Positions 13,960 through 50,037 are shown, numbered from the stretch's first letter. The stretch: DNA of 64,000 nucleotides from an uncultured Candidatus Saccharibacteria bacterium (GCA_964593885.1 CAZQKK010000001.1:425929-489928), one strand, 5' to 3'. Notes: generated by a model not told the origin, from the letters alone. Numbers and translations: made by a program.

Positions 13960-14045
13960 GCCTGGGTGGTGGAATGGTAGACACGCTAGCCTTAGGAGCT
14001 AGTGCCCGCAAGGGCGTGGAGGTTCGAGTCCTCTCTCAGGTACCA
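13960..14045 (+). tRNA. tRNA-Leu (anticodon UAG) with encoded 3' CCA
   Basis: manual cloverleaf: 7-bp acceptor stem GCCTGGG/CTCAGGT (two G-U pairs), 3-bp D stem, anticodon stem CTAGC/GCTAG with loop CTTAGGA (anticodon TAG), long variable arm GCCC-GCAA-GGGC, T arm GGAGG-TTCGAGT-CCTCT, discriminator A, CCA. Confidence 0.85.
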
Positions 14046-40701: not shown

Positions 40702-41979
40702 ATGACAAAGACACAACCTATGGAAAGCGAAGAGACAACCCACATTCCAGAGCCAGACCACGAGTGGCATGCCAGGCACGGGGTGCAGCACCAGCGCAGA
40801 GACCTGCGTAAGCCTTTTGCGGTGTTCTTGGCACTCCTAGTAGTGCTCATGGTGGGAGGAGCTGGGGGAGTTATTGGTTTCATTAGCCTCACCAATAGCG
40901 ATGCACCATGGGCCAGGGAGGCTCGTTCGCTCCTGAAACTTGATGAGCTCTCAGAGCTACGCGTACCTATTAAGCAGGATCTCAAACTTGAAGAGAGTTC
41001 AGCGGTTATTGATGCGGCAAAGAAGGTTTCACCTGCGGTGGTTTCAGTTACTGCTAACGCAAACGTTACCGACTTTTTCACCGGCACAACCTCTAGTCAA
41101 GAGGTGGGTGGTGGGACTGGTTTCATCATTACCTCAGACGGTCTCATCATCACCAACAAGCACGTCATCAGCCAGCAGGCCAACTACAAGGTGGTCTTGA
41201 GCGATGGGAGAATCTTTGATGCCACCATTAAGGCAGTTGATCCCCTCAATGACCTTGCCGTAGTGAAGATTGATGCAAAGGATCTTCCCGTTGTAGAGCT
41301 TGGTAGCTCAGATGGTCTCCAGATTGGCCAGTACGTTATTGCAGTTGGAAATGCCCTAGGTGAGTTCAAGAACTCAGTTACCCTAGGTGTGGTTTCAGCC
41401 AAAGATAGGAAGCTTGAGAACGTAGGGAGTGGTAGCCAGACAGAGACCCTCACCGATCTCATCCAGACAGATGCTGCTATTAACCCAGGAAACTCAGGAG
41501 GTCCACTGGTAAACATGGCTGGACAGGTGGTTGGCATCAACACCGCCATTGCCTCAAATAGCGGTGGATCAATTGGCCTCGGGTTTGCCATCTCAATTGA
41601 TAGCGTCAAAACCGTCATTGAGAGTGTCAGAAAAACAGGAGAAATTGTCAGGCCTTACATGGGGGTTAGGTACGTTCCAATTACCAAAGCTGTCCAGCAG
41701 GCAAACAACCTCACAGTAGACTATGGTGTTCTGGTGAGTCGCGGTACAAGTAGCCTCCTGGAGCTTGCAGTCATCCCTGGAAGTCCAGCTGATAAAGCTG
41801 GCATTATCGAGAACGACATCATCCTCAGCATCAACGGAGACAAGATTGACGCCACCAACACGCTCCCACGTCGCATGGCAAAGTTCCAGGTAGGCGAAAC
41901 GGTTGATGTGAAGATCCTCAGGAAGGGTGAAGAGCAAACCATCAAGGTAACCCTGGAGAAACTCCAGGCTAGCAACTAA
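40702..41979 (+). CDS. htrA: HtrA/DegP-family serine protease with PDZ domain
   Basis: catalytic triad context TNKHVI, DLAVVKI, GNSGGPLVN; C-terminal PDZ (GSPADKAGIIENDIILSING). Confidence 0.85.
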   Translation: MTKTQPMESEETTHIPEPDHEWHARHGVQHQRRDLRKPFAVFLALLVVLMVGGAGGVIGFISLTNSDAPWAREARSLLKLDELSELRVPIKQDLKLEESSAVIDAAKKVSPAVVSVTANANVTDFFTGTTSSQEVGGGTGFIITSDGLIITNKHVISQQANYKVVLSDGRIFDATIKAVDPLNDLAVVKIDAKDLPVVELGSSDGLQIGQYVIAVGNALGEFKNSVTLGVVSAKDRKLENVGSGSQTETLTDLIQTDAAINPGNSGGPLVNMAGQVVGINTAIASNSGGSIGLGFAISIDSVKTVIESVRKTGEIVRPYMGVRYVPITKAVQQANNLTVDYGVLVSRGTSSLLELAVIPGSPADKAGIIENDIILSINGDKIDATNTLPRRMAKFQVGETVDVKILRKGEEQTIKVTLEKLQASN

Positions 41980-42689
41980 TGACTTTTCTAGGAGGCATGT
42001 TTGGGGGCGCTGAAGGACTTCCTCCTGTAGAGAAAGTGGTAACTCCAGAGCTTGCCATAGAGCGAAGGTTGGGCGAGGAGGCACCCGATGAACATGAGGT
42101 TGTAGTTGAGATTCACCCAACCAACCCTCCTAGCGTCCAGCGCTTTGAGCAAGATCAGTCTGCTACGCCATCGCTTGCTGCTCAGGCACCATGGCTGCGC
42201 CCCGGTGTTGCTGTGGGTGAGCTACATTTCAGCTTCACTTCAGCAGGCTCTCCATCAGATAGTGTTGCTGAGAAGCCAGCACCAGTTGAGCAGGAAACCA
42301 CCGAGGTGGTTACTGAAGTAGTGCCAAGGCGGGTGCGTGCAGAGAGGTTTAAGCCAGGTGAGGAAATCCTCGCCCTCGATATTGAGCGAGCAAATCTTAG
42401 AGCTGAAATTGGAGATCTTGAAGGTGCCCTTGCAGCGCTTGAAGACGAAGTTGCAGCAACTCCCATACTGCGGAGGCAGTTGCTGGTTGTGCGCAGCCTG
42501 AGACATAAAAAAGATACAGAACTGCAACTTGCTAGAGCCCAAGCTCAGCTTGCAAAGAAGGAGTCTCGCCGGACCTACCTGCTCAGTGTACGAGATGGCC
42601 TCAGGAAGCTTGGCGAGGACCAGGAAAAAATGGGTGAAATTGACTTCGACGACTGGGTTGAAGAGAAACCTACGCCTGAAGAGGAATAA
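41979..42689 (+). CDS. hypothetical protein with C-terminal coiled-coil
   Basis: 236 aa; TAATG overlap with the htrA stop suggests co-translation. Confidence 0.45.
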   Translation: MTFLGGMFGGAEGLPPVEKVVTPELAIERRLGEEAPDEHEVVVEIHPTNPPSVQRFEQDQSATPSLAAQAPWLRPGVAVGELHFSFTSAGSPSDSVAEKPAPVEQETTEVVTEVVPRRVRAERFKPGEEILALDIERANLRAEIGDLEGALAALEDEVAATPILRRQLLVVRSLRHKKDTELQLARAQAQLAKKESRRTYLLSVRDGLRKLGEDQEKMGEIDFDDWVEEKPTPEEE

Positions 42690-43584
42690 TCTCGAGGATA
42701 CGGTCTAGATCTGCGTAGTCTTTGTGGACGGTGATGGTGGCCCCTGGGAAAGCAGCTTGAGCGAGGGGTTTGAGAGCAGGAGTTTGATCCTCGCCGTACT
42801 CAACGATGACGCGTCCACCCGGTGCTAGGTAGGAAGGTGCTTCGGCAAAGAAGGAGCGATAGAGACCAAGGCCATCTTCGTCCCCCCCAAAGAGCGCTAC
42901 ATCAGGCTCATGGAAGAGGACATCAGGTTGAGCATCAGGGTTCATTCGCCAAGCGGGAGCGATGTAGGGGAGGTTTGCGGTAATGAGCTGGAAGCGCTTC
43001 CCGGCAAATTTTTCGTGGGCGAAGAGGTCTGCTTCCAGGAAAGAAATTGCTGTGTGGGGGCTAGGCCTTGGGTTGAGTGTTTCGTAGTTTTCTCTGGCGA
43101 GAGCAAGGGCTTCGGCTGAGACATCAGTGAGGATGAGGGTGGCAGGGATGTGTAACGCCTCAAGCTCAAGTGCTAGGGTGACGCCAATGTTTCCAGCACC
43201 AGTGCCAAGCTCTAGGACCGAAACCGGGCAGGGCTTGTTGGTTGCCTTGGCGTTAGTGGTAAACCACTGGGTGAGAAATGGTACGGCGAGATCAATTACC
43301 CCCTCAGTTTCGGGGCGAGGAATGAGGGCTCGCGAATCACACTTGAAAGGTCTGCTGTAGAACTCTTTAACGCCGGTGATGTAGGCTACTGGCTCGTTGT
43401 GCTGCCTTCGCTCCAGAAAACTCTGGTAGGTTGCAACCTGTTCTGGGGTGAGGAGCTGCTCCGGGTGGGTGTGGAGGTGCTCACGCGAGCAGGTAAGGAC
43501 ATGGGCGAGGAGAACCTCAGCTTCCCTAAAGGAAACTGGGATGCTGCTGACGTTGAGAGCTTGAGAGATAGTGGTGGGTGACAT
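42670..43584 (-). CDS. prmC: release factor glutamine N5-methyltransferase PrmC/HemK
   Basis: N-terminal SFREAEVLLAHVL, SAM motif VLELGTGAGNIG, substrate motif ANLPY (NPPY variant); ORF extends to a GTG at 43671 but the ATG at 43584 matches the E. coli N-terminus. Confidence 0.8.
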   Translation of the reverse strand: MSPTTISQALNVSSIPVSFREAEVLLAHVLTCSREHLHTHPEQLLTPEQVATYQSFLERRQHNEPVAYITGVKEFYSRPFKCDSRALIPRPETEGVIDLAVPFLTQWFTTNAKATNKPCPVSVLELGTGAGNIGVTLALELEALHIPATLILTDVSAEALALARENYETLNPRPSPHTAISFLEADLFAHEKFAGKRFQLITANLPYIAPAWRMNPDAQPDVLFHEPDVALFGGDEDGLGLYRSFFAEAPSYLAPGGRVIVEYGEDQTPALKPLAQAAFPGATITVHKDYADLDRILEIIPLQA

Positions 43585-43655
43585 ACAGCGCCAAGCATAG
43601 CAGAAATCAGGTAAACATTGCACATACGTTGTCTGGGGCTGTACACTGTAAGCGT

Positions 43656-43943
43656 ATGAAGTCTCCTGCACATTTTTTGAAGGCTCACCGGTACTTGGTG
43701 ATTTCAGTTGCCTACGTAGCGGTTATGGCGGGTGCTAGCTACTGGCCAGCACCAGGTGGAGAGGTTGCTGGGGTAACAGACCACCAATTCTCTGTAGAAA
43801 AGCTTCCGAGTAACTTGCCAAATAGGGATTTAGCTATTGAGGAAGCGATTGCAAAGGGTCAGAAAAGTTACGTATTTACTACTAACTTCATTCCTGGGAT
43901 TGGAGTTGTCTCCCAGGAAGGAAGCATGAACCTCAACCAGTAA
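43656..43943 (+). CDS. hypothetical small exported/membrane protein
   Basis: ATG at 43656 inside ORF 43578..43943; N-terminal hydrophobic segment YLVISVAYVAVMAGA; first of four consecutive + strand hypotheticals. Confidence 0.35.
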   Translation: MKSPAHFLKAHRYLVISVAYVAVMAGASYWPAPGGEVAGVTDHQFSVEKLPSNLPNRDLAIEEAIAKGQKSYVFTTNFIPGIGVVSQEGSMNLNQ

Positions 43944-43952
43944 TAACTACCC

Positions 43953-44792
43953 ATGCGTTTACTTCGCTCACAACTTGTGGCGCCAGCTCTCACCTTCCTC
44001 TGCTTTGGCATAGGATCTGCCTTCTTGGTTTCAGGTGTGGTGCCAAAGATCTTTGGCGAGACAAAGGCTGTTGAAGCAGCTGCTAAGCAGTACACCAGTA
44101 CCTGGACTGCCAAAAGGGTGATCAGGGCGCAGTGGGGAGGGTTATGTGTGAGAGGCGTTGGATGTACCCTACAGCAGACCACCTACACAAATGCGGGGAA
44201 AAGCTACCCATATGGTGGTAACTACATCAATGAGTCACTTTCTGGTAGGTCTGTTTCTATTGGGGTGGCCGAATGGGAGGTGAAGGGTCAAGTTCCCTCA
44301 AATGGTACCTACTTCAAAGAAACGTGGGCTATTCCTGGTAGTAAGGATTTAGATGTGAGGTTTGAGAAGGTTGATAACAACTTCAGCACTACTGGAAAAC
44401 GAGTGGTTACCAGTGTATCACCAGATACTGTTAACCTGAAACAGTTCCTCATTGGTATCTCAGACCAATCTTACGCGGTAAGGCTCTTCACAACTACAGC
44501 CCCTACAAGTGGACCGGTTGGCGCAAACAGTGGTACTCAGTTTGGGAATGGTGCCTCAAGCTGTAATGGTACCGGTGGTGAGACAGGGAGTGGTGGTATG
44601 ATGGGCTCCTTCTGTATAACCTCTACTGGTAGCTACGGTTGGTACCGTGGGAAAGCAGGGGCAGATGTGGGGGGAAGTTCGTATTTCCCAACGTACACAT
44701 CTGATAGTAATGCTGCAGGAACTTTCATGCCACTTAGCTGGACAGTTGTTGGGAACGTCTGTGACAAGGCCACTGACCCAGAGTGTAAGTAG
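43953..44792 (+). CDS. hypothetical exported Cys-containing protein
   Basis: 279 aa, N-terminal signal-anchor LTFLCFGIGSAFLVSGVV; 8 Cys mostly paired (CVRGVGC, CDKATDPEC). Confidence 0.5.
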   Translation: MRLLRSQLVAPALTFLCFGIGSAFLVSGVVPKIFGETKAVEAAAKQYTSTWTAKRVIRAQWGGLCVRGVGCTLQQTTYTNAGKSYPYGGNYINESLSGRSVSIGVAEWEVKGQVPSNGTYFKETWAIPGSKDLDVRFEKVDNNFSTTGKRVVTSVSPDTVNLKQFLIGISDQSYAVRLFTTTAPTSGPVGANSGTQFGNGASSCNGTGGETGSGGMMGSFCITSTGSYGWYRGKAGADVGGSSYFPTYTSDSNAAGTFMPLSWTVVGNVCDKATDPECK

Positions 44793-44830
44793 CTCGTTTC
44801 GCCTAACTTCACCACATAAGGAGAACTCAC

Positions 44831-45568
44831 ATGAGCGATTGGTCAAACGGACTCCAACTCCCCGACGAAAAGCCTGAGACAGAGAAGCCAATGCCCCTGC
44901 ACGAGGAGAGGCAGCCCTCACCCGAGGCACGGCACGAGCACCCACATGAGGTGCGGCACGAGAAGGTGCTCCACACCGATAAGCGTAAAGTTGGGAAGGG
45001 TAAGCCTGCCTTTTCGGGTATCTCCCAGGTTCAGATAGGTATTGGGGTGGCGACCGTCCTCGTTATCTCCCTCACTGCGGTACTGGCGTACCGAAGCACT
45101 GACAACGTGAGGAAGACTGAGGAACAGAATGAGCTCACCCAGCAGAGCAAGCGCTCACTAGAGCCAGGCGTCTGGGTGGCTGAGAACTTCGTTGCAACCT
45201 TCAAGGTAACATCGCCTTGGGAGGTGGTGCTTTCGGATACTGATATGTGGATAGCATCCTACAAGGAGGAGGGAATCACCGGCCAGCTTGAGGCGAGCAT
45301 CCAAGATAGTAGCTTCTCTGATCCCCTCAATGGTACCCCTCTGGATTTTGCAAGTATCCAAGGTTTGTACTCCCAGACCAGCCAGCTGACGTTTGATGGT
45401 GGTAGCGAGGTGAGGCGGGTAACCAGCATCGTAGGTGCTCTCTACAAAGGAACTCAAATTGGCATCCAGTTTACCCTCCAGGGGAGCGAAGATGTGCTGA
45501 CAGATGAAAAAGTAGCTACTCTCACCACACAGTTCAAGCAATTCCTTTCAGATGCCACGATTGAGTAA
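44831..45568 (+). CDS. hypothetical membrane-anchored protein (His/Glu-rich N-terminus, one TM, C-terminal globular domain)
   Basis: 245 aa; TM IGIGVATVLVISLTAVLAY. Confidence 0.5.
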   Translation: MSDWSNGLQLPDEKPETEKPMPLHEERQPSPEARHEHPHEVRHEKVLHTDKRKVGKGKPAFSGISQVQIGIGVATVLVISLTAVLAYRSTDNVRKTEEQNELTQQSKRSLEPGVWVAENFVATFKVTSPWEVVLSDTDMWIASYKEEGITGQLEASIQDSSFSDPLNGTPLDFASIQGLYSQTSQLTFDGGSEVRRVTSIVGALYKGTQIGIQFTLQGSEDVLTDEKVATLTTQFKQFLSDATIE

Positions 45569-46541
45569 GCTTTCTCGTTTTGCGGTGGCATTCCTCCTCA
45601 TATCGGCGCCATTTGTTTCTGCTACGCCAGTAGGTGCTACGGCGCCTCCGCCAGCTAGTAACCTCTGTGCCATTATTGTGGGGCTCTGTGATGCAGCTCC
45701 GGCACCCCTTCCAGACTTTAGGTTTACGGTAAGGTCTGGCGCCACGTCACGTACGGTAATTAACAACACCGAGTTAGCCTTTCCAGTAACCCTTAAGGTC
45801 ACCAATGGAAGTGATGAGTTTACACTCTCAAGTGTGAGGTTCTACGATCAGAAGCGTGTTCTCCCTCCTGACACAACCTGCTATGCCTTCAGAACAAACC
45901 TGCTCTCTCCAGGTATTGGGGTGAAGGGACCTGCGAGCAACCCAAACGTCCCCTGGAAGCAGGCGGTAAACAACGAGCCGTGGGGGCCAAGTTTCGGACC
46001 AAGCTCAATTACCTTCACCAACATCCCTCGCAACAAGCTGAGCAAGGTGCAGATTGGGATTTCATGTGACTACCTGGGGCAGACGTACCGTCGCTCGGTA
46101 CTCTTCAGTATCCAGGGTTTTGACGACACAACCGGAGGGGTGGCAGCAATGACTTTCCACAGGGTAAATCCTCCACCTATTGATAGGACAAGTGCCATTC
46201 AAACAGGAACAGCCCTTCTGTGGTGGACCATTCGTAACAATGTGGGTGTCTGTACGATTACCGAGGTGAGGAGCGATGGCAACTACCAGCCACCTATTAG
46301 TAGGTGGGGGACAGATGCCTACATTAAGGCAAACCTGGGGAGTAGCCTAGGGGTAGGGCTGACCGTAGACTACCCAGCGGTGCCTGGTTCAAATCGCTAC
46401 ACCTTCACCATGAAGTGTAGCAACGTGACAAACCCAATTGACGCAACCATCACTGCTACGAGGATAAACAACGGCGGAGGAGGCGGAGGATCTAGCCAGG
46501 GGAAGGTACTTGACTACGGTAGGGGAACCCAGAGGTTCTAG
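45552..46541 (+). CDS. hypothetical secreted protein with Gly-rich C-terminal tail
   Basis: signal peptide MPRLSKLSRFAVAFLLISAPFVSA; 329 aa; C-terminal NNGGGGGGSS. Confidence 0.5.
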   Translation: MPRLSKLSRFAVAFLLISAPFVSATPVGATAPPPASNLCAIIVGLCDAAPAPLPDFRFTVRSGATSRTVINNTELAFPVTLKVTNGSDEFTLSSVRFYDQKRVLPPDTTCYAFRTNLLSPGIGVKGPASNPNVPWKQAVNNEPWGPSFGPSSITFTNIPRNKLSKVQIGISCDYLGQTYRRSVLFSIQGFDDTTGGVAAMTFHRVNPPPIDRTSAIQTGTALLWWTIRNNVGVCTITEVRSDGNYQPPISRWGTDAYIKANLGSSLGVGLTVDYPAVPGSNRYTFTMKCSNVTNPIDATITATRINNGGGGGGSSQGKVLDYGRGTQRF

Positions 46542-46563
46542 TTTCGTACAGATGACGGGTATC

Positions 46564-46594
46564 AAAAAAACTCAGGCCAGATGCCTGAGTTTTT
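46564..46594. terminator. bidirectional intrinsic terminator (A7-CTCAGGC-CAGAT-GCCTGAG-T5)
   Basis: lies between convergent genes 45552..46541(+) and prfA(-). Confidence 0.7.
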
Positions 46595-47681
46595 AGTTTT
46601 GAGCCGCGTGAGCTGCAGCTTCTCGCAGCTGCTCCTTTTGCTTATCGAGGAGCACCGTGATGATAGGCTGAATTGCCCCGTCCATAATGCCTGGGAGGTT
46701 TGACCAGGATTCGTTGATTCTGTGGTCGGTGATCCTATCCTGGGGGAAGTTGTAGGTTCTAATTTTCTCAGACCTATCGCCACTTCCAATCTGGGAGGCT
46801 CTTGCTTCAGCTCTCTCAGAGCGAAGCCTCTCTTGCTCCTGCTCGTAGAGGCGCGATCTCAGTACCGTCATTGCTTTGAGGCGATTCTTGATCTGTGACC
46901 TCTCGTCTTGGCAGGTTACCACGAGCCCCGATGGCTTGTGGGTAATACGTACGGCTGAGTCTGTGGTGTTGACGTGCTGGCCTCCGGCACCACCTGAGCG
47001 GTAGACATCAACCTGGAGGTCACCCTCGTTGATTTGAATGTCGGCTTCCTCGGCCTCTGGGAGGATGGCAACGGTTGCTGCAGAGGTGTGAATTCGTCCC
47101 ATCTTCTCTGTTGCGGGGACTCGCTGTACCCGGTGAACACCACTCTCAAACTGGAGGTGACGGTAGACATCTTCGCCACTCACCTGGGCGGTAACCTCTT
47201 TGATACCCCCAAGCTCACTGCGAGACAGGTTGGCTATCTCAACCTTCCAGCCCTGCACCTCGGCGTAGCGAGAGTACATTCTGAAGAGCTCACCGGCGAA
47301 GAGCTCGGCTTCATCGCCCCCAGTGCCTGCCCTGATTTCTAGGATGACATCCTTGCCTTCATTGGGGTCGCGGGGGAGGATCAGGTCTTCAACCTCAGCT
47401 TCAAGACGTGAGACTTCTGCCTCAAGCTCAGGAACCTCTGCTGCAGCAATCTCGGCTAGCTCAGGGTCATCTGCGGTGAGGAGTTCCTGGTTATCCTTGA
47501 GCTGCTGTGAGACGTCTAGGTAACGTTGGTAGGTGGTGACAACTGTTTCCAGCTGGCGGTGTCGCTTCCCAAGCTTTGCGGCGCGCTCAGGATCATCAAA
47601 GAGAGAGCTCTCCTGCAATTGCAAGGAGAGCTCTTTGTACTCGGCTTCTAGAGGGGCAAGGGAGGCTGCCAGCGAAGCCAT
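46593..47681 (-). CDS. prfA: peptide chain release factor 1
   Basis: GGQ motif ([20 protein letters not shown]), PxT-region; 362 aa. Confidence 0.9.
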
Positions 47682-47690
47682 GGGGAGTAA

Positions 47691-47966
47691 TTACTCGTTG
47701 GTGTCAGTATCGGCCTTGGCTGCCTTTGCAGCGGCACGAACAGCAGCTTCAGCCTTAGCGGCTTCTGCCTGCTTTTGGCGAGCAGCAAACTTATCAACAC
47801 GTCCAGCAGTGTCTACAAGTTTTGACTTTCCAGTGTAGAGCGGGTGACAGTTTGAGCAAATTTCTACGCGAAGATCCTGGCCGAGGGTTGAACCAGCTTG
47901 AAAGCTGTTGCCGCAGGCGCATGAGAAGGTAGAAACGGTGTAATCAGGGTGAATTCCAGTCTTCAT
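47691..47966 (-). CDS. rpmE: 50S ribosomal protein L31 (Cys-type zinc ribbon) with Ala/Lys-rich C-terminal extension
   Basis: MKTGIHPDY...CxC...[10 protein letters not shown] signature; about 25-aa extra [18 protein letters not shown] tail. Confidence 0.85.
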
Positions 47967-48059
47967 GATGAGACATTAACGATGTGCAGTGCTCACACTA
48001 CCAGGCTAGCATCAGATTTGCAAGGGGTGAGGCGTCCTGCTATCTTGGCAAAACCTAGC

Positions 48060-48437
48060 ATGCTAGCTGGGAGGTTACTATTGGGTTATTGGAAGGATCC
48101 ACAAGAGAGAAATAGGTTACTCAGGTTCACTCCTGAGTTCAAAATTGCCACAGCACAGCTGGCACACGTCGCACCGGTAGCCAAAGGTTACTTCTGGGGC
48201 AAGAATAGGGGAAAGAAGGGCAGGAAACGCTTTCAGCACGCTGTTGAGCTTCACCAGGTTGAGGTCAGGCGCCTGGCGAAGTACCTCATCAAGCAACACT
48301 TCCGTGAGAAGGAGCGTGAGGCGAAGCGGCAGCAACAGCTCCGCCAGAGAGCAGCGCCACTGCCTGCCCAGTTTAGACCTAGGCCTAAGTCTGAGGTCTA
48401 CGGCTGGGATATGATCGGTTCCATTGGCTGTGACTAG
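48060..48437 (+). CDS. hypothetical highly basic small protein (uncertain; start undetermined within ORF 47949..48437)
   Basis: Arg/Lys-rich ORF followed 10 nt downstream by a strong + strand intrinsic terminator; N-terminal part overlaps the rpmE start on the opposite strand. Confidence 0.3.
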   Translation: MLAGRLLLGYWKDPQERNRLLRFTPEFKIATAQLAHVAPVAKGYFWGKNRGKKGRKRFQHAVELHQVEVRRLAKYLIKQHFREKEREAKRQQQLRQRAAPLPAQFRPRPKSEVYGWDMIGSIGCD

Positions 48438-48449
48438 CGCGTATTTCTA

Positions 48450-48476
48450 CCACCCACACGAGCGGGTGGTTTTTTT
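48450..48476 (+). terminator. intrinsic terminator CCACCC-ACACGAGC-GGGTGG plus T7
   Basis: GC-rich 6-bp stem followed by TTTTTTT on the + strand. Confidence 0.7.
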
Positions 48477-48685
48477 ATGCTTCCAACCTGGTTGTCAGGG
48501 GTGAGAAGTTCTGGTACAGTAGCTCTGTTCGCCCAATCGCCACGCAACAAACGTGCAGAGGGTAACGCTCAACAACTTACTAACGGTTACGCTGATGGCT
48601 CTCTCCTGGCCCTGCTCATGCAGTGCTTCCCAGAGCTAGATGACGCGCTAACCAATCTGCCCACCCTTGGGCAAAGGAGAACTAG

Positions 48686-49582
48686 ATGGCTCTACCAACT
48701 ATCCCGGATGTCCGGGAACTCATGGATGCTGGTGTTCACTTTGGACACGCATCAGGTAAATGGCACCCAAAGATGGCGCCTTACATTTTCTGTACCCGCG
48801 ACAAGCTGCACATCATTGACCTCGAGAAGACCCGTGAGCAGCTAGAGAAGGTACTTCCAGTTATTGAGGAGCGAATTGCCTCAGGCAAGAGCTTCATCCT
48901 GGTTGGCACCAAGCGTCAGGTTGCCGACATGGTGAAGGAAATGGGAACTGAGCTCGACATTAACTTCGTTAATGAGCGATGGCTTGGTGGTACCATGACC
49001 AACTTTGGTCAGATGATGCAGAGTATCAGCCGCATGAAGAAGACCGAGGAAACCCTCGCTTCAGACGATGCTGCCAAGATGATTAAGAAAGAGCGCGTAA
49101 TGCTTGCTTCAGACCTCAAGCGCATGCACGCAAAGTTCTCAGGTCTCCGTAACTTCACCAAGAAGCCAGACTTCCTGATCATCATCGACCCTTCCTACGA
49201 GCACAACGCCATCAAGGAAGCTCGTTTTGAGGGAATTGAGATGTTTGCCCTCGTTGATACCAACTCAGACCCAAGTCAGGTAGATTTCGTCATCCCAGCT
49301 AACGATGACGGTCCAAAGTCACTCAAGCTCATGCTTGGCCTCCTCAAGGAGACCATCACTTCTGGAAAAGCAAAGCTTGCTGCAAACAAGCAGGCTGCTG
49401 AAGCTGCTGTGCCAAAAGAGTCTGCTAAGGAAGAGATTGCGGTTGCAACTCCTTCTGAAGAAGAGCTCGTAGCAATTGAGGAAAAGATTGAAGAAGTTGT
49501 AGATAAAGAGAAGAAAGAGGTAAAGAGCGCAAAATCTCCAAAAGAAGCTAAAGCAGAGGTAACAACCGAAAAGGAGGACTAA
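48686..49582 (+). CDS. rpsB: 30S ribosomal protein S2 with Lys/Glu-rich C-terminal extension
   Basis: LMDAGVHFGHASGKWHPKM N-terminus; SD AAAGGAGAA; about 60-aa charged tail. Confidence 0.9.
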   Translation: MALPTIPDVRELMDAGVHFGHASGKWHPKMAPYIFCTRDKLHIIDLEKTREQLEKVLPVIEERIASGKSFILVGTKRQVADMVKEMGTELDINFVNERWLGGTMTNFGQMMQSISRMKKTEETLASDDAAKMIKKERVMLASDLKRMHAKFSGLRNFTKKPDFLIIIDPSYEHNAIKEARFEGIEMFALVDTNSDPSQVDFVIPANDDGPKSLKLMLGLLKETITSGKAKLAANKQAAEAAVPKESAKEEIAVATPSEEELVAIEEKIEEVVDKEKKEVKSAKSPKEAKAEVTTEKED

Positions 49583-50037
49583 TGGCAGGCTACACCACAG
49601 CAGACATCGCAGAGCTCCGCGAGCAGACCGGAATGGGTCTCATGGACATCAAGAAGGCTCTCGATGAATCCAAGGGAAATAAGGCTAAGGCTCTTGAGAT
49701 TCTCAAGGAACGCGGCGCCCAGATTATGGCCAAGAAGGCTGATAGGACTGCTGCTGAGGGGATTATCGATGCCTACGTCCACGCCGGTAAGATTGGTGTA
49801 CTGGTAGAGGTTAACTGCGAGACAGACTTTGTAGCACGTGGCGATGATTTCAAAACCTTCGTCCACGACCTCTCCCTCCAGGTTGCAAGCATGGCTCCAA
49901 CAACAGTTGAAGAGCTCTTAGAGCAAGACTTCTTCAAGGATGGCAGGAAGATTAGCCAGTACCTCTCAGACGTTACTGGTAAGCTAGGCGAGAAAATTGT
50001 GATCAAGCGATTCACCAGAATTACCCTGGGCGAATAG
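49582..50037 (+). CDS. tsf: elongation factor Ts, short form (151 aa)
   Basis: UBA-like N-terminus ADIAELREQTGMGLMDIKKALDESKGNKAKALEILKERG; VEVNCETDFVAR core motif; ATGG overlap with rpsB. Confidence 0.8.
   Translation: MAGYTTADIAELREQTGMGLMDIKKALDESKGNKAKALEILKERGAQIMAKKADRTAAEGIIDAYVHAGKIGVLVEVNCETDFVARGDDFKTFVHDLSLQVASMAPTTVEELLEQDFFKDGRKISQYLSDVTGKLGEKIVIKRFTRITLGE

Follow-up and report, generated by a model that had tools for sequence, protein, structure and literature searches.

In bacterial genomes the gene for peptide chain release factor 1 (RF1; prfA) is usually followed directly by prmC (hemK), which encodes the release-factor glutamine N5-methyltransferase, and in Bacillus subtilis the two genes are co-transcribed (PMC8073009). 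Here, we describe a locus in which this pair is interrupted. The stretch analysed, 64,000 nucleotides from an uncultured Candidatus Saccharibacteria bacterium (GCA_964593885.1, CAZQKK010000001.1:425929-489928; hereafter the window), is a genome fragment of the Patescibacteria, or candidate phyla radiation (CPR), with a guanine-plus-cytosine (GC) content of about 52.6%. Both genes of the operon are intact, in their usual order and strand and downstream of rpmE, and adjacency is the sole feature of the described operon that fails: prfA and prmC lie 3,008 nt apart, with four antisense genes (O1 to O4) and a hairpin in between.

The interrupting block resembles the lineage-specific islets of exported hypothetical proteins found in CPR genomes in being a small, co-directional and fast-evolving cluster with signal peptides or transmembrane anchors and a narrow distribution. 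Unlike such islets, it sits inside a highly conserved translation-factor operon, and its four families travel together. It is probably an operon for surface proteins that is confined to its lineage, and its location is unusual. In our best explanation, a four-gene operon of ~2.96 kb would have been inserted, in opposite orientation and exactly between prfA and prmC, in the ancestor of a small Patescibacteria lineage, and would have been maintained under purifying selection ever since, its products forming a complex at the cell surface. Taken as a whole, insertion and surface complex together, we hold this explanation with moderate confidence; its evolutionary and functional parts are weighed separately below.

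The interrupted prfA-prmC junction

On the minus strand of the window, prfA (46593-47681; Pfam PCRF 3e-73 and RF-1 1e-43) stands downstream of rpmE (ribosomal protein L31; 47691-47966; Ribosomal_L31 3e-28), and prmC (42670-43584) carries a PrmC_N match (1e-18) and S-adenosylmethionine-dependent methyltransferase domains. The domains of both RF1 and PrmC score above the curated Pfam cut-offs, and the PrmC N-terminus aligns with the PrmC starts of outgroups. Open reading frame (ORF) calls place O1 (43656-43943, 95 aa), O2 (43953-44792, 279 aa), O3 (44831-45568, 245 aa) and O4 (45552-46541, 329 aa) between them on the plus strand, exactly the arrangement that the initial annotation of this DNA had described.

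How unusual is this arrangement? A PrfA scan with one genome per GTDB species gave three nearest outgroups, L001-L003, whose PrfA is 71-72% identical, and a further 77 loci that are more distant. In L001 and L002 the 3' end of prfA and the prmC ORF overlap, and in L003 the alignment leaves a gap of 15 nt. The wider neighbourhood is intact in L002 (rpmE-prfA-prmC, followed by htrA, a small transmembrane protein, a PD40 protein and gatB), and L001 retains rpmE-prfA-prmC and a partial htrA. Further out, most of the ~65 loci that have both genes place prmC immediately after prfA, and direct adjacency extends across Acidobacteriota, Bacillota, Chloroflexota and other CPR lineages. No relatives of O1-O4 were found in the 80 outgroup loci.

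Genomes inside the clade were found through homologues of O2, O3 or O4, and in every one of them prmC and prfA are separated by these four genes, with neither order nor orientation changed (L081/82; L083/84, GCA_965609665.1; L085; L087/88; L096-98). Six related lineages thus have the block, with PrfA 92-99% identical where comparable. Sharing of the block among relatives had been named beforehand as a sign that the arrangement is ancestral; such sharing is found, but only at shallow depth, and the nearest outgroups lack the block.

Because prmC adjoins prfA in the nearest outgroups and in most further loci, the split is the derived state, and because prfA and prmC keep their order and strand, it arose by insertion and not by inversion. 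The insertion is also old, as the block proteins are only 36-57% identical between lineages while PrfA is 92-94% identical (HtrA 84-87%, PrmC 71-79%), and the synonymous divergence (dS) is near saturation even in the closest pair compared. On this comparative evidence the block is an ancient and fixed insertion, and we consider it very probable that it arrived in the common ancestor of the lineage. The earlier proposal of a cassette inserted into a conserved operon is thereby upheld, through the outgroup adjacency and through the occurrence of the same four families as a unit at a second locus (L090, discussed below), but the event is old and clade-wide. That all known members of the window's clade have the block could also be read the other way, as an ancestral split from which the outgroups returned to adjacency by losing the block; the adjacency in the three nearest outgroups and in the distant phyla alike, with no trace of O1-O4 at any of these loci, makes that reading extremely improbable.

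The same junction is interrupted in other ways elsewhere among CPR and uncultured lineages: by a same-strand nucleotidyltransferase-like gene in L046, L052 and L065 (8987-10690), by two opposite-strand ORFs in L047 and L054 (9040-10380), and by an opposite-strand methyltransferase-like gene in L025 (1075-2051). These are independent events, and since other lineages have interruptions of their own, a broken prfA-prmC junction is uncommon but not unique.

Neither the composition nor the borders of the block mark it as foreign. Its GC content (0.47-0.54, against 0.526 for the window) and its GC content at third codon positions (GC3; 0.46-0.62) both fall inside the range of the neighbouring genes. 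Short direct repeats, for which a search in the intervals 43585-43655 and 46542-46592 had been suggested, were looked for, and no direct or inverted repeats pair the two junctions, nor is there a target-site duplication. Searches of the block against Pfam, NCBIfam and PHROGs returned no integrase, transposase or other mobility gene, no block relatives were found in viral contigs, and the sole tRNA of the window, at 13960-14042, is not near the block. Nothing points to a recent transfer. An opposite-strand insertion in a conserved operon, a patchy distribution and a different locus in L090 are features that a recent mobile island, or a remnant of a prophage or defence system, would share, but with normal composition, no flanking repeats, mobility genes or nearby tRNA, no PHROG or PADLOC match, no viral relatives, and a block that is fixed in six lineages at saturated dS, such an origin is largely refuted and very unlikely. 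As a separate observation on composition, the plus-strand GC skew is 0.19-0.23 across prmC (window 42400-43800) and falls abruptly where the block begins.

All four ORFs are real genes under purifying selection. Against the close relative L087, in which PrfA is 99% identical, the ratio of nonsynonymous to synonymous substitution rates (dN/dS) is 0.058 for O1, 0.054 for O2, 0.107 for O3 and 0.055 for O4, and it is these values, in the range 0.05-0.11, that establish them as genes; the flanking housekeeping genes have ratios of 0.014-0.08 in the same comparison. The doubt raised beforehand, that the ORFs might lack a coding signal, is therefore removed. Fast divergence of this kind beside conserved housekeeping genes is typical of surface proteins.

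Predicted products of O1 to O4

Neither the four proteins nor their distant homologues match Pfam, NCBIfam, PHROGs, PADLOC or the PDB sequence profiles, and no paralogues of them occur elsewhere in the window. An exact look-up returned no match for O4; NCBI has entries for this genome's O2 and O3. Profile-profile comparison of O2, O3 and O4 among themselves detected no paralogy. The statement of the initial annotation that the proteins have no recognisable domains is thus accurate at the level of sequence, but it fails at the level of structure, where O4 is predicted to have an immunoglobulin (Ig)-like fold. In Kyte-Doolittle hydropathy plots all four have a single N-proximal hydrophobic segment after basic residues, in agreement with the signal peptides or anchors that had been proposed. 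In O2, O3 and O4 the windows exceed 1.8; in O1 the maximum, over residues ~14-32, is 1.52, which is slightly weak. Homologues conserve the segment in all four cases. Unlike type IV pilins, none of the four has a class III signal peptide (G/F-T-L-x-E) in a regular-expression scan.

O1 is predicted to be an N-terminal signal-anchor protein and, in an alignment of seven homologues, has the conserved C-terminal motif RDxAIxxAxxxGxKxYxxTTxFIPG. O2 is a predicted exported or anchored protein: its hydrophobic segment spans residues 7-34, its cysteines form three consecutive pairs (65/71, 204/221 and 270/278), and its homologues share the motifs YTSxWxAxR, GVAEWxVxG, FKExWxIPG, TGSYGW and FxPLxWTVxGxxC. 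O3 is predicted to be a single-pass membrane protein with a cytoplasmic head, in which ~60 residues rich in His and Lys precede a transmembrane helix (residues 61-89) and an ectodomain of ~155 aa. The head (44831-45010) starts with MSDW(S/T)NGLQLP in all five lineages compared and diverges over its remainder, which is rich in His, Lys and Glu; the O3 counterpart at L090 has only MSD in common with it. The conserved start suggests a clade-specific interaction in the cytoplasm.

O4 is the most informative of the four. Its hydrophobic segment (residues 7-30) is followed by six invariant cysteines that fall into the pairs 39/46, 110/172 and 234/289, so that the paired cysteines reported earlier are found in both O2 and O4. 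An AlphaFold2 model built from a five-sequence alignment (mean predicted local distance difference test, pLDDT, 68) is disordered at the N-terminus, over the signal peptide and a conserved cysteine loop (TAPPPAxNLCAIIxGLCD), and then has two tandem beta-sandwich domains of predicted Ig-like fold. The first covers residues ~55-190 (45714-46121, plus strand) at pLDDT ~66-80 and contains Cys110 and Cys172, and the second covers residues ~198-305 (46143-46466, plus strand) at pLDDT ~83-94 over most of its length and contains Cys234 and Cys289. The Gly-rich linker and the conserved tail that end the protein (46473-46538, plus strand) are disordered in the model.

A Foldseek search with this model gave 152 PDB matches at E<=1e-3, all of them tandem Ig-like modules, among which are CfaB pilin fusions, RTX-adhesin repeats, the surface-layer (S-layer) domains of SbsB and Sap, and intimin D00-D0; the matches among viral tail and Ig-like proteins are similarly generic. 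O4 resembles these tandem Ig-like surface proteins in its signal peptide and in its two predicted beta-sandwiches, each with an invariant cysteine pair and repeated in longer homologues, but it has no sequence relation to any Pfam or NCBIfam family, and its linker and tail match no curated model. The fold evidence supports an extracellular Ig-like surface protein and nothing more specific. Together with the hydrophobic N-terminal segments and the conserved paired cysteines, the predicted fold fits the initial idea of surface or secreted proteins.

The C-terminus of O4, GGGGGGSSQGKVLDYGRGTQRF, ends as GGGGGG-SSQGKVLDYGRGTQRF, with VLDYGRGTQRF as its last residues; the poly-Gly stretch noted earlier is thus six glycines followed by a conserved tail. 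No part of the family is better conserved than this tail, L/V-x-N/D-Y/F-G-x-G-S/T-x-R/Q-F-COOH: L320, Y322, G323, G325, T326 and F329 are invariant after a run of five to six glycines, and the same tail is present on every O4 homologue, including the distant multi-repeat ones (P0015, and P0016 at L090). Among the other proteins of the window and of all loci gathered, the motif was found on none. O4, predicted to be exported, ends in a short, strongly conserved motif that follows a low-complexity linker, and in this it resembles proteins with C-terminal sorting signals (LPXTG/sortase, PEP-CTERM/exosortase, GlyGly-CTERM/rhombosortase). Unlike those signals, the motif has no following transmembrane helix or basic cluster, the block has no sortase-like gene, and there is no match to an NCBIfam sorting domain. 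The tail likewise has no transmembrane or other hydrophobic helix and no LPXTG, lipobox or prepilin motif.

What might such a tail do? In the multi-repeat homologues an internal Gly-rich linker leads into the first strand of the next domain, and the tail stands in the equivalent position; because it shares this position and a similar alternating pattern with those first strands, one may speculate that it acts as a donor strand or docking element. O4 might then be the subunit of a fibre or pilus in which, much as in pili of the chaperone-usher and type V kinds, the tail of one copy, freed by its flexible Gly linker, serves as a donor beta-strand for an Ig-like domain of the following copy, with membrane-bound O1-O3 as factors for assembly or anchoring. 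Donor-strand-complemented CfaB pilin fusions are among the best PDB fold matches of O4, the tail stands after its Gly linker exactly as the internal domain-2 repeats of P0015 and L090 do, its conservation exceeds that of the domains, and domain 2 has only six strands in the model. The fold matches are generic, however, at template modelling scores (TM-scores) of 0.2-0.3, and the resemblance between the first strands of the repeats (TYSLAVTD, FTFAATA) and the tail (VLNFGYGS, VPNYGYGS) was judged by eye. Chaperone-usher, type V and sortase pili also differ from the block in that it has no recognisable usher, chaperone, sortase or processing protease, and no LPXTG motif or lipobox. We regard a pilus-like role as distinctly improbable.

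Transcription of the split operon

The block genes are tightly spaced (O1/O2 9 nt, O2/O3 38 nt, O3/O4 overlapping by 17 nt), and an AAGGAG Shine-Dalgarno sequence stands upstream of O3; because of this spacing, the overlap and the Shine-Dalgarno sequence, O1-O4 would be transcribed as a single operon. The transcript would start in the 71-nt spacer (43585-43655) from which prmC and O1 diverge. Within this spacer the palindromic TGTACA(C/G)T (43640-43647), 8 nt before the ATG of O1, is kept in four of five genomes while the rest of the spacer diverges, and AAGCATAGCAGAAA is kept in three of the five. The palindrome could serve as a -10-like element for a transcript with almost no leader, or bind a regulator.

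At its other end the block converges with prfA across 51 nt. A hairpin resembling a bidirectional intrinsic terminator (46563-46600) consists of an A-run (46563-46569), a stem of 8 bp with five G-C pairs (46570-46577/46583-46590) and a T-run that overlaps the prfA stop codon. With flanks of A7 and T5AGT4, the hairpin has a U-tract on both strands next to a GC-rich stem, as a bidirectional Rho-independent terminator should, and direct folding supports it (-20.4 kcal/mol, z -2.95), though a consensus terminator scanner did not list it. The bidirectional terminator of the initial annotation is thus recovered as a candidate. The hairpin occurs in three of five lineages, conserved in L087 and with a compensatory stem in L083. 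It may end the O1-O4 transcript and also terminate prfA.

With 3,008 nt, an antisense operon and a putative terminator between them, co-transcription of prfA and prmC is very unlikely here. On its geometry, then, the locus agrees with the earlier suggestion that prmC needs its own promoter: prmC would have lost co-transcription with prfA and would have its own start in the spacer or near and beyond it. The spacer must hold the start of the putative O1-O4 transcript and, probably, that of prmC.

A rare module and its possible role

The block families are extremely scarce. Word-indexed searches over 5.8 billion proteins gave 4-5 relatives for each of them, and a HMMER profile search with O4 over 1.84 billion representative proteins gave four. 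Two of these four (P0015, and P0016 = L090:7797-9080) are longer, with domain 2 repeated two or three times and with the same tail. L090, from a distant genome, is a 226-kb contig of 56.6% GC in which the families stand in the order O2-O1-O3-O4 between a DEAD-box helicase gene and msrB/clpB. Its O2 homologue is 32% identical and its O4 homologue 34% identical (E 2e-30); O1 is recognised by the motif RDxAIxxAxxxGxKxYxxTT, and an O3-like single-pass protein by hhalign (E 2e-4 over 136 columns). Scanning metagenomes for the O2 profile gave two further arrangements: an exported cyclophilin followed by O2, O2 and O1 (L094/L095), and an O2-like gene that occurs twice on one groundwater contig with no other block genes (L092/L093). 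Because all four occur together at the unrelated L090 locus, and O2 and O1 occur elsewhere without the others, these gene orders indicate that O1-O4 are a module that travels together, with O1 and O2 as its core pair and O3 and O4 as an accessory pair.

The O2-like copies on the groundwater contig, 423 kb long and from Hainich, are short, near-identical and 12.8 kb apart (L092 7929-8579 and L093 7929-8579). Each has an ORF for a PlsC-like acyltransferase (228 aa) before it and an opposite-strand ORF of 157 aa after it, which has an N-terminal hydrophobic segment and a cysteine and is possibly a lipoprotein. This arrangement looks like a local segmental duplication.

We propose that the products of O1-O4 act together outside the cytoplasmic membrane, with O1, O2 and O3 tethered to it. 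The signal-anchor protein O1 and the cysteine-paired ectodomain of O2 would form the core pair. O4 would be secreted, as two disulfide-braced Ig-like beta-sandwiches followed by a flexible linker of glycines and by a conserved tail of 10 residues, which most plausibly docks it onto a partner, either one of O1-O3 or another copy of O4. The assembly would be a fast-evolving structure on the cell surface, with which the bacterium most likely attaches to other cells or interacts with them; the fast divergence fits a role that is exposed to other cells, and surface attachment structures are expected in epibiotic CPR bacteria. For a function as a surface complex or adhesin we put the chances slightly short of even.

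Several observations weigh against this proposal. The function is read only from topology and fold; the Foldseek TM-scores for O4 are low (0.2-0.3) and its matches are generic Ig-like folds, and the AlphaFold2 model of O2, from a four-sequence alignment, reaches a pLDDT of only 31. Pfam, NCBIfam and motif scans of the block gave no adhesin, pilus-assembly, sortase or S-layer family. Since the module is so rare, with four O4 relatives in 1.84 billion proteins, the comparative support is thin, and the neighbouring genes of L090 gave no matches to the other gathered sequences. On the transcriptional side, a sigma-70 promoter scan of the 71-nt prmC-O1 spacer gave no consensus site, and the hairpin is absent in two of the five lineages examined (L081 and L085).

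The module might alternatively be a structural or maintenance component of the envelope and not an adhesin, for instance a scaffold associated with the wall or S-layer, or an accessory of folding or quality control. SbsB and Sap are among the fold matches of O4, the neighbourhood of the block is envelope-related (a PD40/TolB-like protein, a small transmembrane protein and HtrA), in L094 the O2-O2-O1 core directly follows the exported cyclophilin, and the block is stably retained in six of six lineages. The envelope-related neighbours are, however, present also in outgroups without the block, so their linkage to it is incidental, and the fast divergence and very patchy distribution speak against a core structural role. 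We regard an envelope component of this kind as unlikely.

On the htrA side, an acidic hypothetical protein of 236 aa (41979-42689, plus strand) has its start on the stop codon of htrA, and at the 3' end it shares 20 nt with the convergent prmC. The protein is fast-evolving, with 34-46% identity between lineages and a dN/dS of 0.11. Because its position is occupied in L002 by an apparently different ORF of 188 aa on the other strand, this side of prmC also appears to be variable. On the rpmE side, the rpmE-rpsB spacer of ~720 nt (47967-48685) has a basic ORF of 162 aa (47949-48437), another of 122 aa and, at 48449-48470, a hairpin that resembles a terminator, and relatives have small called genes of varied lengths there (70-97 aa). 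After rpsB, at the position of tsf, stands an ORF of 151 aa (49582-50037, plus strand) that is 92-95% identical in relatives and whose counterparts in L083, L085 and L087 have the Pfam EF_TS domain; a typical bacterial elongation factor Ts is about twice this length.

In conclusion, the locus implies that an antisense operon can divide prfA from prmC for good, widely conserved though the pair is, with neither gene lost, and because of this permanent split co-transcription of RF1 and its methyltransferase is not a necessity in this lineage. The block also adds four linked families, outside every curated library searched, as a conserved and fast-evolving extracytoplasmic set in CPR bacteria. Apart from type IV pili, the surface biology of these bacteria and the means by which they attach to hosts are, to our knowledge, poorly known. 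The boldest reading is that the block encodes an undescribed four-component surface system of the Patescibacteria, with O1 and O2 as its core and O3 and O4 as accessories, in which the Gly linker and tail of O4, NYGxG(S/T)x(R/Q)F-COOH, would act as a novel signal for docking or donor-strand exchange, so that O4 polymerises or is tethered to a membrane platform of O1-O3. We give this a low probability; if true, O1-O4 would make up a fibre or adhesin of a new type, with which the cell contacts its host. Should the O4 tail prove to be an assembly or anchoring signal, the block would represent a new mechanism of surface display; otherwise it would be one more lineage-specific islet of surface proteins.

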